From Saccostrea cucullata (Eukaryota), in assembly GCF_032062105.1 (NCBI RefSeq), contig NW_026932596.1, forward strand, positions 1 through 64,000: a stretch of DNA of 64,000 nt, written 5' to 3'. Below are positions 42,402 to 51,217 of this stretch, piece by piece. The position numbers and the translations under genes are program-made. The notes beneath the pieces were generated by a model that was not told the DNA's origin, did no database searches, and saw only the letters and a program-made list of their open reading frames with translations. Positions within the stretch are counted from its first letter, which is position 1. Each line of letters begins with the position of its first letter.

Positions 42402-42624
42402 ATCGACAGTGAATTACAGAAATTCTCATTTCTCCATAAATTCCGTCAAACACTTTTTTCCTTAATGGTATTAGTTTTAAAGTCTCATTTATCTCGTGCA
42501 AACATTTGTGTGGAACATAGCTAATTATATATATATAAAAGGTGGTCATATGACACGCCTTCCTTCAAATATTGTTGTGAAAATTAGCGACATCAATCAA
42601 CCAAACTAGTAAGAGATTTATTAG

Positions 42625-42750
42625 GATTCGACACTCCAAACCACACTTCTAGTAGATATGATTTTTTTGCATAGAGCAGATTAATATTTCATCTGAATTA
42701 TGCAAGTAGTTGTAGAGTGTGTCGGTTATTAAGAAGCCTCGTCAGGGGCC
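42625..42750 (-). ncRNA. Degenerate hammerhead ribozyme (probably inactive)
   Basis: GGCCC-CUGACGA-GGCU..AACC-GACA-CACU...AGUGUC-GAAUC. The GAAA core is mutated to GACA and stems I and II are disrupted. Confidence 0.6.
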
Positions 42751-42901
42751 ACGGACATAAATCATGGTGTTTGTTTTAGGTGAGACCGGATTATTTCGTC
42801 ACCTATATTCTTGTGTTTGCTGTAAGCTATGGTTGGATGAGAATTAAATAAAGTTCTGCATTCTCGATTTCTAAGAATGGTGTCCCAGTATTTCAGAATT
42901 C

Positions 42902-45583
42902 CCCTTGCGAGGTGAAATTCAAAATTTCAGGAACTTTTATGAATCGTTCATTAACATTCATGATGTGTTCATTAAGATGGTTCATGACTGGTTCATTAAG
43001 ATGGTTCATGAACTTTATTCATGAATATATTGATAAAATGTAGTTCATGAACAAATGATGAAAATATATATGAATATTGGTAATTTTGATTTTAAAGATA
43101 GAAAAAATGTAGAGTTCAAGGTATTATGAATGTAAATGAATTTTCATTAAGACTAAAATAATTGACAAAAATTTTTGACAGAAAAACACTCAATACTCTC
43201 ATAATACAACGTTTACATGCAGATGCAATTGTTGAACAAGCCCCTGGTATAATTCATATTTAATAACATTCTTTCACCCTCTATCTGAAAAATAAATAAT
43301 GATATCTCTAAACATTTCGTGTTTTTATTTGATTTTAATTAAACAAACACTGCAGCATCATTGACAACATTTTTTTTTCAAATTGATTACTTATGCTTCT
43401 TCATAATGTAAATAAAACAATTATATTTATCATAATGTGCTTTAAATAATGTCATTTTTCCTCACACAACTTTGTTCGACCGAATTGTCTCTAACATCAA
43501 ACTTTTAACAAGTTGTTGGTAGATGAAACATTCTGGAAAAGGAACTTTGTGAGCTTCGTAAAAAACGTTTTATATATTCATTAACAACTAAAAATTAAAT
43601 CGCTTGTCTGTACTGTACCGCATTATTCCTGGATCGAAACGCTATATACATTTCAATTTTGGTGCAGTAAAAATGTAAAAAGTTTCCCTTGCCTCGTGTA
43701 TAAATGATAGAGCACAGACTGCATGGTTGTAAAATATCTTTGACATAATCCACATTCGTATTTTGTAGTTTAATTCTCCTATGCGTCTTCACAGTTCAGA
43801 ATATTCAGTCTGAGGGCGAGAGATTGTTATTATCATGTCATTTGTCCTCTGTTAATGGGGGCCTCCATACTTGCAATACGAAACAAAAAGTCTATACATG
43901 TATAATTGATGACGTAAAAAATTCGAATTCTTCATTGATAAAACTTACTTTGATATTAAAAATTGTATTTTGAGTGAAAAATTATCCAGATAGTGTTTGT
44001 TATTTTTTATATTAAAAAAAAAATCTTGGAAATTCGAAACTAACGTATTTTTAGCTCAATCGTACATTTTTGAATAGGCGCAAACTTGAAAACGCGCGAG
44101 ACGTTGGAAATTGGAATTTGTAGAGTGGAAGGATCGGCAGGCATATTTGTGATCTATAATTTGCATTGTCACTGATCTTTGTCAACTTTTTAAGAAAACA
44201 GAATATGAAGAAGAAAGACTATATATAGCCGTAATATGATCGATCTACTTCATAGCTGGTGAGTGACAAAAAATGGAGGCAATCACTGAGTCAGAAATCT
44301 GTCTGTAAATATTACTTTCTATTTGTAAAATAAAGTAATGTCTTTTTTTAATGAAAGTTTTGTCTAACTCTGCTTTGAGTTTGGATCCAGCCATATAACA
44401 TACATTAATTATAGACTGAGACTCAAAACATTCATAGGCCTGATTGATCTTCAAAATGGCGGTCAAAGAAAATAGGCTCAAATTACACTCAGAATATTTT
44501 AATTTGGAAGTGCCTCTGATGTAAAATTAAATTAAACTAAAATGCAAGAAAATACAAAAATGTCTTATGTTTTACAATCATGGGTATTTTCAGAAAATCT
44601 TTCTTTTTGAAGGAAGAAGAGAAGCAGTTCACAAATGTTTATGAGTAGCAGACAAAAAACTCTATCTGCAGAAAAACTGAGCTCTTGAAAAAGAAAGAAA
44701 AACAGAAATGAAAATACGAATGATATTCAATCAAAGGATCCAAGTGATGAAATTCTGGAAGTTCCACATGGAGAGACAATAAGGATTTTTGAATTGACCA
44801 TCTCAGCTCGAAATGCTTGAAAGTGCTTAAAACTGTTACCCTGGTGCTGTACAAACTTTTCTCCTAGACTGGAATTAAACACTGTTCAATTTCTGGCTTT
44901 TAAACACACTTTGAAACATGCTGAGGAAGGACCCACCTCTCCTCTTGACCAAGTTAAGTTAAACATTCTGCGCAGAGTTGCGTTTGAATTGAAATTTTTT
45001 ATACTTTTACCAAGAATGAACTACATTACTCATTTACTATGGTTTAATATGTCAAAATTGTCTATTTTAATTTTTTAACAAAGATTTTGTTGCAATGGTT
45101 GGAAAACAAACAACATTTTTTTGAAATCTCTCAAGATGCTATATTATAAAACATATACTTTACTTTTTTAGCAAGACTTCATGCATTTTCATGAATAAAC
45201 ATGACTAATAATATTGCAATTTTTGTTTGCAAATAAGCAAGAATATTCATGAATGCTAATGGTTCATGAATTTTATTCATTCATAAACATTCCTGAAAAA
45301 GATTATCAAATTATTCATGAACAGTTCATGAAGATCAAATGAACTTATTATTGGACATACTTGAGACGATGAATCTTCATGAATCTGACTCTTCATGAAT
45401 TATTCATGAAAAAAATATTCATGAATATTCATCAGTTTTCTTTCATGAATGAAAATTCATGATTTGAAAATGTCGAATAATAAGTTCATAAGATCTTCAC
45501 GAACATTTCATGAACATTTCATGAATAAAATACATGAAAAATTCAAGGAAATTCATGAATTATTCATTATCGTCTCGCAGGGG
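42902..45583. mobile_element. EnSpm/CACTA-like (CCC-terminal) non-autonomous DNA transposon
   Basis: TC|CCCTTGCGAG ... CTCGCAGGGG|TC, a 2-bp TSD confirmed by the uninterrupted paralog at ~50445. Dense TTCATGAA subterminal repeats at both ends. Confidence 0.75.
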
Positions 45584-48789: not shown

Positions 48790-50586
48790 AATGACCACAG
48801 GGGAAAAGTTTGTTCGAAATCTATCAAGATACAACTTATCCGAACATGAACTTTTTTTTACTGAGCAGAGGCTTGAAATTCATTCAAACGCTTAAAAGCA
48901 ACTATGCTAAAAGCATACTTCTCAATGATATTGAAGAATTTGCTAGAAAACTCAGATGCAAATTCCACTTTGATACCGGAGACAACACTACAATTCACCC
49001 CTTTAAACCAAATCTGGCTACAAACCGCCATTTACATGCAGGGAACTCGAGAAATATATAGATAAAACAAAACTGGAAATTTCCTCAATGGAAATTATAA
49101 AAAAGAAATCGAACATCTCAGAGTCTGAAAAAGCAGCTATTTTATCTCTTAAAAATAACAACGACATTGTTATCAATAAAGCAGATAAAAGCAACACAAG
49201 GCCAACTGCAATCTAAAACTATATGCAAGAATCTGAACCCAACATGCTTAAACTGCATGACAGTATTCATAATAAACTTGCCGAAATGCATACTAATGGA
49301 TCACTGGCCAAAGACACATAAGTTCTTCAATGACAAAAAAAACCTTCACTCAAATGTGGGCACTTACACCTTTTTACCTAAAACCCACAAAATACCAGCA
49401 AACATTTTCAATGCTCTAATTAATGCTCTAATAAACGGTCAGTGCAGCTTTAGGAAATTACCACCTGGTAGACCTGGTAGACCAATTATCTCGCAATGCG
49501 ATACGCCAACGAGGAAAATAAGACAATATTTCGATTACTTTCCTGTACCCATTGTACAAAAACAATCATTTTATACTGAAGGCACCACGGACTTTATCAC
49601 CAAAATCGAAAGCCTTACACTGCCAACCAACGCATTATTAATTACTTATGATGTGACGAGCATGTACACAAACATGGAATTTAACGAACTTCTTTCTTCA
49701 GTGAATGAGGCTTACACACAGGCCAAAAAAACGCAATTAGACATTCCATATCCTAGCCCCGAGGATTCAAACTTTTTCCTGAAATGCGTCTTGGAAAACA
49801 ATTACTTTGAGTTTGATGGAAAATACTACAAACAAATGGGGGCAGTCCCCAGTCCAGAGATTTGTGACATCAGAATGTATCAAATCACACAGCATATATT
49901 GGCACAATTTCGTCATTCTCGCAAAATTGTCTTCCACGGTAGATACCGTGATGACGGTTTCATAATATTCAATGGAACGCAACCAGAGATAGAAGAATTT
50001 TTCAATATCGGCAATCACTGTCACAAGCATCTAAGTTTAACATTTGAAATGTTTCCATCTTCCGTTAACTTCCTTGATACTACAGTTTACAAGGGACCGA
50101 AATTTCAAAATCTTAACAAACTTGATATCAAATCGTTTATCAAACCAACAAATAACTTTGAGTATTTACACAGAAAGAGCGATCATAGCCCAGCTGTGTT
50201 TAAAGGATTCATTAAAGGAGAATGCATTGGAAATGCAAGAAATACTACAGACCATGAAATATTACATGCAACACTCAATGACTTCAAGGCTCACTTATCA
50301 AAGCGAGGCTATCTACTTCGGAAATTGATCCTACTGTCGAAGAAACGATCAACACAAACCGATCAAACACAATACAGAACAGCCATTACGTAACCCTATA
50401 GTACTGGTTACTAAATTTAACCCTTGCATTAAAGGATTGAAAAAACGAATTCTATAATATTGGAACACCATTCTTAGAAATCCAGAATGCAAAACTTTAT
50501 GTAACTCTCAACCAATCATTGCTTACAGCAAACACAAGAATAGAGGTGACGAGATAATCCGATCTCACCTAGAACAAACACCATGA
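48790..50586 (+). pseudogene. PLE reverse transcriptase, frameshifted
   Basis: ORFs 48810-49061 and 49167-50393 plus a frameshifted tail. RT motifs present, motif B partly deleted. Confidence 0.85.
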
Positions 50587-50597
50587 TTTATGTCCGT

Positions 50598-50721
50598 GGC
50601 CCCTGATGAGGCTGCTTAATAGCCGAAACACTATACAACTACTTGCATAATTCAAATCAGATATTAATCTGCTCTATGCAAAAAGCATATCTACTAAAAG
50701 TGCTGTTTGGAGTGTCGGGTC
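50598..50721 (+). ncRNA. Type I hammerhead ribozyme with extended stem III
   Basis: Stem I GGCCC (50598-602) / GGGUC (50717-721), CUGAUGA (50603-609), stem II GGCU/AGCC, GAAA (50625-628), stem III ACACU/AGUGU, cleavage triplet GUC (C50716). Confidence 0.85.
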
Positions 50722-51217
50722 CTAATAAATCTTTTACAAGTTTCGTTGATTGATTTCGCTCATTTTCACACATCGGAGCACTCTGCCAGGACGCAAGGAA
50801 CAAATCTTTAAGAAGTTAAAAAATTTAACTGATTTTGTTTTTGGCAGAGAGCACAACCACAACAAGAGAAGAAAGGTTTGAATTTTCTTAAGCTTGAATT
50901 TAACCCTGCTTTTTTTTATAATTATATTATTACATCTTTATTGTATTATGGCAAAGATATGACTTGAAAAGCTATTAAATGAAAAAAAAACAAACATGCA
51001 ATACCTCTTATGGTTGTCCTCTTCCTGTCGTTATTACACACTTTGCAGCCCCTTTTAAACTTGTCGATAAAAGACATGCGCAGATGTCGCTTAAGATGTA
51101 CAAATTTAATTTTCTCCGTCCCGAAGTAAAGTGCATACTCGAATTTCTAAACAAAGCTATTGGTTGATCGAAATATATCACGTGAAAAGAAAATAGAGAT
51201 ACGGAGAAAATGAAATA

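Follow-up and report, generated by a model that had tools for sequence, protein, structure and literature searches.

Among Penelope-like elements (PLEs), those of the Neptune group bear at the C-terminus a GIY-YIG endonuclease (EN) joined by a CX2-5CxxC linker, and EN-less families are described as arising within Neptune (MjPLE01) and within Chlamys (PLE-X), with their mechanism of insertion stated to be open (PMC8557442). MjPLE01, from the kuruma shrimp, is called "Neptune-like" there and is counted as Coprina in PMC13159263; PLE-X, which bears a hammerhead ribozyme, is found genome-wide in Chara braunii and targets the 28S rDNA in Selaginella (PMC8557442). Dispersed EN-less PLEs have precedent in the Chara PLE-X, and the shrimp element is EN-less (PMC8557442). 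Reviews treat EN-minus PLEs as rare and confined to telomeres, and a 2026 survey omitted them for that reason (10.64898/2026.07.22.740005). The Coprina-type hammerheads of fungi and protists have a large helix III (PMC4209133). Here we analyze an EN-less PLE of the oyster Saccostrea cucullata, found in a window of 64,000 nucleotides (RefSeq assembly GCF_032062105.1, contig NW_026932596.1, positions 1 to 64,000 of the forward strand). A sequence-only reading of the window had proposed an EN-less, hammerhead-bearing lineage with two open reading frames (ORFs) that inserts internally, and intact copies and their junctions elsewhere in the genome bear this out: they have ORF1, a reverse transcriptase (RT), and a hammerhead but no nuclease domain, and the copies are young, dispersed, fixed at one end, and mostly not flanked by a target duplication.

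The stretch from 42576 to 50770 is a single head-to-head insertion of two decayed copies that belong to different subfamilies, are 82–89% identical, and point away from each other from a meeting point at 47265/47266. The plus-strand copy (47267–50770) begins with a decayed, 5'-truncated ORF1 (47267–48053, stop codon 48051–48053), which when intact is 278–334 amino acids long and is predicted to form three long helices, with a basic tail that ends in KRPY. A helical ORF remnant had been placed at 47487 to about 48050; the ORF is present, but its start lies further 5', as homology to intact ORF1 spans 47269–48044. A spacer (48054–48693), whose counterpart in an intact copy has no ORF of 90 or more codons on either strand and no GIY-YIG match, leads to ORF2 (48694–50586). 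This encodes a telomerase-like RT with thumb, 646 amino acids when intact and here broken by frameshifts and deletions, of the long-subfamily type. Stem I of the hammerhead starts about 11 nucleotides (nt) past the RT stop, in keeping with its original placement; the ribozyme (50598–50721) is of type I with a long stem III, its core CUGAUGA at 50603, GAAA at 50625, and a predicted cut after 50716. The 55-nt segment at 50717–50770 runs from the cut to the fixed 3' end (TTTTCACAC), the putative start site of reverse transcription.

The minus-strand copy (47265–45584 plus 42901–42576) comprises the body of an inverted, 5'-truncated RT copy (45584–47265), subfamily-A-like by its diagnostic sites, and a 3' end (42576–42901), 93% identical to intact copies, that holds the RT C-terminus, a mutated hammerhead (core at 42745; GAAA changed to GACA and stem I broken), and the element 3' end at 42576. 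The two diverged RTs both end in RSHL(E/K)QTP*, as had been seen before, with stop codons at 50584–50586 on the plus strand and 42764–42762 on the minus strand. A later insertion of 2.68 kb (42902–45583) splits the inverted copy; it has short terminal inverted repeats, CCCC(T)TGCGAG, and no ORF longer than 93 codons, and is likely a non-autonomous DNA transposon. This non-coding insertion has subterminal repeats rich in TTCATGAA, and a related end adjoins an EN-bearing (EN+) PLE at locus C17990. No empty allele of the insertion site in the window was found, both flank matches containing the insertion.

A genome search with the 3' part of the element gave 689 candidates, of which 40 were scored, and the 3'-terminal 25-mer has 238 exact copies in the genome. 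A natural intact copy of 3,767 bp (G000:C7066:3163-6929) reads, in order, ORF1 (334 codons between stops), a spacer of 626 bp, the 646-amino-acid RT with an in-frame stop directly before its ATG, the hammerhead, and the fixed 3' end. Because tandem copies flank this unit on both sides, nothing upstream is missing. A longer element, suggested by a period of 4,485 bp at this locus, was rejected, as the period is the 3,767-bp unit plus a 720-bp pseudo-long terminal repeat (pLTR); the composite unit occurs three times at 99.7% identity within C7066:1-15905, which points to tandem amplification after or during insertion. Subfamily A (2,884 bp) has lost most of ORF1 but kept the RT, and forms head-to-tail arrays that are 98–100% identical. 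Its short 5' region was considered as a spliced form, but the junction has no AG acceptor and is read as a deletion. The most numerous young subfamily (L040:2415-5298, G000:C17201, and many arrays) has ORF1 mostly deleted and the RT open, so ORF1 is either dispensable or supplied in trans.

RT frames are open in 19 of the 36 full-length RT copies fetched. Between subfamilies, the nonsynonymous and synonymous divergences (dN/dS) are 0.033/0.181 for the RT and 0.089/0.665 for ORF1, and the family is young and under selection. Three more families, with RTs 45–65% identical and the same build of ORF1 and hammerhead, are present, and EN-less families whose RT frames are open number at least four in this genome. 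(Family 4, at L313:7570-7660 and G000:C19640:51500-51600, differs from families 1 and 3 in having a 400-nt 3' untranslated region followed by a compact hammerhead.) The family shows the PLE features of pLTRs, a hammerhead located in the pLTR, partial tandems, and inverted 5'-truncated copies, and the 646-amino-acid ORF has GLKF and DKS motifs that match the N-terminal GxKF and the DKx of PLEs. Its predicted structure (predicted local distance difference test score, 91) consists of RT and thumb with no extra domain, and its best fold matches are telomerases (TERT structures). ORF1, predicted as three long helices with disordered ends, had no match in Pfam, Atlas, or fold searches. Several ORF1s terminate in R/K-x-PY, which we take to be a PY-type nuclear import signal.

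To look for an endonuclease we aligned 123 endonuclease domains of PLEs into a GIY-YIG profile and used it for six-frame searches. The profile had no match in the window from 42500 to 50800 or in two intact copies, and in the same search it recovered an EN+ PLE remnant near 54.7 kb (E = 1.7e-10), which Pfam GIY-YIG also detects (E = 3e-4). Hence the earlier observation that no GIY-YIG domain follows or precedes the RT holds, as does the identification of the remnant, an unrelated, 5'-truncated fragment at 54722–55186 on the plus strand, outside the insertion, that retains the C-terminal part of GIY-YIG. Full-length members, which might have encoded what the decayed copies had lost, gave the same answer: Pfam searches of ORF1 and the RT, allowing E values up to 1, find neither a GIY-YIG nor an HNH domain. 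A Naiad-like arrangement with a detached N-terminal EN was rejected, because tandem junctions bound the intact unit at either end and no EN lies within it. A spliced-in nuclease is also not supported: the spacer has no ORF of 90 codons, and three poly(A) RNA-sequencing runs show no splice joint, the depth there being near zero.

Searches for relatives returned 687 and 20,491 sequences, of which the best 120 and the best 150 were listed; among these listed matches many are 642–650 amino acids long and have the same end point, and the named hosts are the bivalves Saccostrea, Pinctada, Mytilus, and Argopecten. The longer, fused homologues (nine matches) are all at most 32% identical. The classification of database proteins as EN-less is made from the predicted protein sequence; a six-frame check at the DNA level found no EN match in 6 regions of this genome and 22 metagenome contigs. 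The RT was placed in a phylogeny of 291 RT-bearing sequences (220 after clustering at 85%), in which Neptune-type neighbors were typed by their own Zn-linker and C-terminal EN, there being no named Neptune, Coprina, Athena, or MjPLE01 sequence in the trees. The element falls among these Neptune-type elements in a clade of 98 members (support 0.997), 95 of them without EN, 3 truncated, and none EN+. In a second tree of 86 rows, 30 clade members lie on one branch (Shimodaira–Hasegawa-like approximate likelihood ratio test, SH-aLRT, 100), their sister is an EN-less coral group (Porites) with a long N-terminus (support 86), and the EN-less groups are nested inside Neptune-type elements (SH-aLRT 96). 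The Porites-containing group (L251, L253, L254, L263, L265, L268, L271; P0093, P0098, P0110) is a separate EN-less PLE group, with a single ORF of 840–950 amino acids that is extended far at its N-terminus and whose start coincides with, or lies downstream of, a compact hammerhead; ORF1 of the oyster element gave no BLAST match to the fused N-terminus of the coral elements and a weak, at most suggestive profile match (E = 0.028, probability 1.8%). More EN-less RTs are scattered outside both clades (P0182, P0218, P0189, P0242, P0231, P0243, and L299; named hosts include Ephydatia and a protist), a distribution that suggests repeated loss of EN among Neptune-type elements.

Neptune PLEs are among the nearest known elements. 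The RT of the oyster element nests among elements with a Zn-linker and C-terminal EN, has GLKF, and lacks both CxC and the insertion in the fingers domain (IFD), and the two share pLTRs, tandem and inverted arrays, and a hammerhead. The oyster protein, however, stops where the Neptune linker would begin, and the element differs further in having a separate ORF1, no (TA)n targeting, and mostly DKS or DKN in place of DKG. MjPLE01 is likewise an EN-less animal PLE within or near Neptune and may belong to the same clade. PLE-X resembles the oyster element in lacking EN, bearing a hammerhead, and spreading genome-wide, but derives from Chlamys with CxC and is found in plants and algae, whereas the oyster element has a Neptune-side RT without CxC. 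Coprina and Athena also lack EN and have an upstream helical ORF, a hammerhead, and priming at free 3' ends; in contrast, the oyster element is dispersed and numerous and has neither telomere-complementary repeats nor telomeric junctions. Naiad and Chlamys are set apart by an N-terminal GIY-YIG, CxC, DKA, IFD, and no hammerhead, where the oyster element has an all-helical ORF1, no upstream EN, DKS, and a hammerhead, and the Hydra clade by a C-terminal EN, DKT, RWK, and a GxKF that is not conserved, where the oyster element conserves GLKF and has no EN.

How the element inserts was approached through its junctions. Among 183 element 3' ends, 100 continue into element sequence and 83 into other DNA, the latter making up 74 distinct host junctions. 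At none of these 74 does (TA)5 occur in the nearest 40 nt or a telomeric hexamer in the nearest 30 nt, and (TA)5 lies within 130 nt of 3 of 73. As controls we took EN+ families (the best GIY-YIG matches and one relative, 150 of 1,458 candidates being scored): (TA)n adjoins 30 of 32 ends of one family, 11 of 14 of the family of the 54.7-kb remnant, and all 12 loci of a third, and the copies seen of a fourth are also at (TA)n. The optional tail of 30–40 nt described for PLEs was present at none of 53 host-joined ends (one 26-nt tail occurs at C7815), and a 41-nt piece is found at the internal junctions of C10205/C13975. Both flanks were available for 51 independent insertions (40 listed loci minus two alleles, plus 13), and target duplications that reach 9 nt are present in only 4 of them, at lengths of 9, 18, about 44, and about 80 nt (9–84 nt overall); among mismatched flank pairs, 1 of 300 reached 9 nt. 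Empty sites tell of loss or blunt joining. At C10872, 1–2 nt are lost and at C18125 the join is blunt (five of five paralogues in each case), and at C17201 the loss amounts to 6,253 nt, with 4 nt of microhomology. Comparison with a diverged paralogue points to near-blunt joining at C11765, and comparison with a repeat unit to the loss of 56 nt at C13166. In contigs from DNA runs for C18125, no joint spanned the whole insertion. The copies are interstitial, for example 0.53 and 0.91 Mb from the ends of C416 and at 0.31 and 0.37 Mb in C18125, and copies 98–100% identical sit hundreds of kilobases inside contigs and also within other transposons. The window itself begins a contig of 531 kb, and no tandem telomeric repeat occurs in the window, in the 10 kb that follow it, or in the final 10 kb of that contig, as the sequence-only reading had it for the locus; nor does the family behave as a subtelomeric one, its copies being dispersed and its junctions not telomeric.

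The hammerhead leaves its own traces in the genome. It is a type I ribozyme whose stem III encloses about 85 nt and which is predicted to fold as a monomer; families 2 and 3 and two metagenome contigs have a hammerhead of this form as well. In an alignment of seven sequences, 93% of the cells are paired and 4 of 15 pairs have changed on both sides. An Rfam scan found no hammerhead, missing the long stem III, and 61-nt folding pieces missed it because stem III is long. Among 181 3' ends examined, 58 belong to copies truncated within the last 290 nt; 9 of these 58 short truncations, at 5 independent loci, start at the predicted cut or one base beyond, a clustering with a Poisson estimate of about 2e-5. 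At C6858 the entire insertion consists of two 55-nt stubs that start at the cut. The stubs are indirect evidence that the RNA is cut at the hammerhead site in vivo. As reverse transcription would start 55 nt past the cut, in the downstream direction, tandem copies of full length can be made only from a circle or a multimer left uncut, an origin already proposed for tandem PLE copies (PMC4209133).

Single insertions can also combine templates. In the 5' part of the RT, the minus copy in the window has A-type bases at 43 of 57 diagnostic positions and long-type bases at 11, and the plus copy has long-type bases at 45 of 60 and A-type bases at 12; further 3' in the RT the subfamily signal of the arms is mixed. 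At C19640, families 3 and 4, with RTs 45% identical, lie head-to-head inside one 44-nt duplication, and at C6399 both arms have family-1 ends and family-2 cores. The insertions at C2048/C5965 and C7986 are also of mixed families, and none of the fetched loci holds an insertion mixed with an EN+ element.

The element is an EN-less, two-ORF, Neptune-related PLE, and from its junction anatomy we judge it probable that reverse transcription is primed by the two ends of a double-strand break that is already present. Tandem copies would be transcribed and the RNA cut by the hammerhead 55 nt upstream of the RT start site. A particle of RT and RNA, probably with ORF1 as RNA-binding partner, would then anneal 0–4 nt of the AC-rich start site to a broken end and extend it. 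Were a separate particle to prime each end of the break, the product would be a head-to-head array whose outer ends are both element 3' ends, as in the window. On linear, cut RNA the RT would run off after 55 nt, whereas circularized or uncut multimeric RNA would give full head-to-tail units, and the RT would switch templates, including between families. Host end-joining would close the middle, leaving the target blunt, shortened by resection, or occasionally duplicated via a long stagger. The nearest parallel is EN-independent insertion of L1, which shares target loss (its mark; PMC1920257), the lack of duplication, and template switching and is read as break repair (PMC1920257), but is a rare side route of an EN+ element, whereas here it is apparently the sole route, starts at a fixed internal 3' site, and is often primed from two sides.

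Several points weigh against priming at breaks. The break itself was not observed, the loci were drawn from search hits rather than sampled at random, only about four empty sites are resolved, and at C416 a search of 9.5 kb in each of three homologous loci did not recover the left flank. EN+ PLEs, too, normally form head-to-head and tandem arrays (PMC8557442), so these alone do not prove EN-independence. The four duplications show that staggered nicks sometimes occur, and a nuclease outside the families sampled, with no preference for (TA)n, could be at work in trans. An EN+ PLE inserted in vitro without needing its hammerhead (PMC11167929), and RNA reads on the oyster element (100–185 per run, in both orientations) are too few to reveal a transcript, a cut, or a circle.

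The sequence-only reading had left two routes of insertion, breaks or stalled forks on the one hand and an endonuclease in trans on the other. Insertion at breaks is favored here, and use of the nearby EN+ family is disfavored because its copies end at (TA)n (11 of 14) and those of the EN-less family do not. More generally, the element could be a semi-autonomous parasite whose own RT primes at nicks or cuts made by an EN+ PLE, a long interspersed nuclear element (LINE) apurinic/apyrimidinic endonuclease, or a DNA transposase, which we regard as unlikely. The genome has many intact EN+ PLE ORFs, EN+ fragments lie within 0.5–4 kb at C11765, at C14836, and in the window, template sharing between families shows that the particles are promiscuous, and the duplications at 4 of 51 insertions would suit such a nuclease. 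Yet the lengths of those duplications vary, all four EN+ families examined end at (TA)n while the EN-less family has none in 74 within 40 nt, its ends share no sequence with the EN+ loci tested, no fetched locus mixes it with an EN+ element, and the Penelope EN is reported not to cross-mobilize EN-less Athena (PMC3846280).

Still less probable, in our estimation, is priming at the 3' ends of replication forks or at host repair nicks, as for some EN-less retroelements, rather than at two-ended breaks. The lack of a target motif and the frequency of one-ended, 5'-truncated insertions (13 of the 32 family-1 loci listed) would agree with it, and fork restart could yield long duplications. In many insertions, however, both outer ends are element 3' ends, in some cases of two different families, an arrangement that needs two opposed 3' ends, and the 6,253-nt loss at C17201 fits resection. 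Finally, a telomere-type EN-minus element in the manner of Coprina and Athena, its copies moved inward by later rearrangement, has in its favor the two ORFs, the lack of EN, the long-stem-III hammerhead, and the Coprina-like DKN/DKS (PMC4209133, PMC13159263), together with an assembly in contigs whose chromosome ends are not known and trees without a Coprina reference, but is very improbable and is already contradicted by the junctions, the element having no tandem telomeric repeat (one isolated hexamer in 3,766 nt), no telomeric 3' or listed 5' junction, and copies 98–100% identical hundreds of kilobases inside contigs and in other transposons.

Other features of the window lie apart from the insertion. 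Two 21-bp tandem arrays in inverted orientation, with palindromic units, occupy 39270–40603, where chance microRNA-like Rfam scores fall below threshold. An old dispersed duplication joins 21318–23318 and 39080–41704, spaced about 18.4 kb apart and 73–90% identical. A broken LINE-like C-terminal fragment (54330–54753) lies immediately upstream of the EN+ PLE remnant, and a weak zf-RVT match is present at 57687–58052 on the minus strand.

A search of the full-text literature, which does not extend to Repbase and Dfam, where the elements may already be catalogued, returned no account of an EN-less PLE clade with two ORFs from either molluscs or corals. It seems to us an even chance that a clade of autonomous retroelements in animals, old but active to this day, has abandoned DNA cleavage and patches double-strand breaks from both ends, that its families pool their RNAs at one break, and that the genomic copies record hammerhead cleavage in vivo and rolling copying. 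By removing host DNA and linking RNAs that are unrelated, the insertions give rise to structural variation, which annotation pipelines would file as broken Penelope copies. Close EN-less relatives occur in several farmed bivalves. With at least four open EN-less families, a compact enzyme of 646 amino acids with a high-confidence fold, a fixed start site, and a predicted monomeric ribozyme, three standing questions about PLEs become directly testable: how they prime without a nuclease, what the hammerhead does in vivo, and whether circular RNA is the origin of tandem copies. If the proposed mechanism is true, the clade would offer a living model for how a telomerase-like enzyme works at internal breaks.

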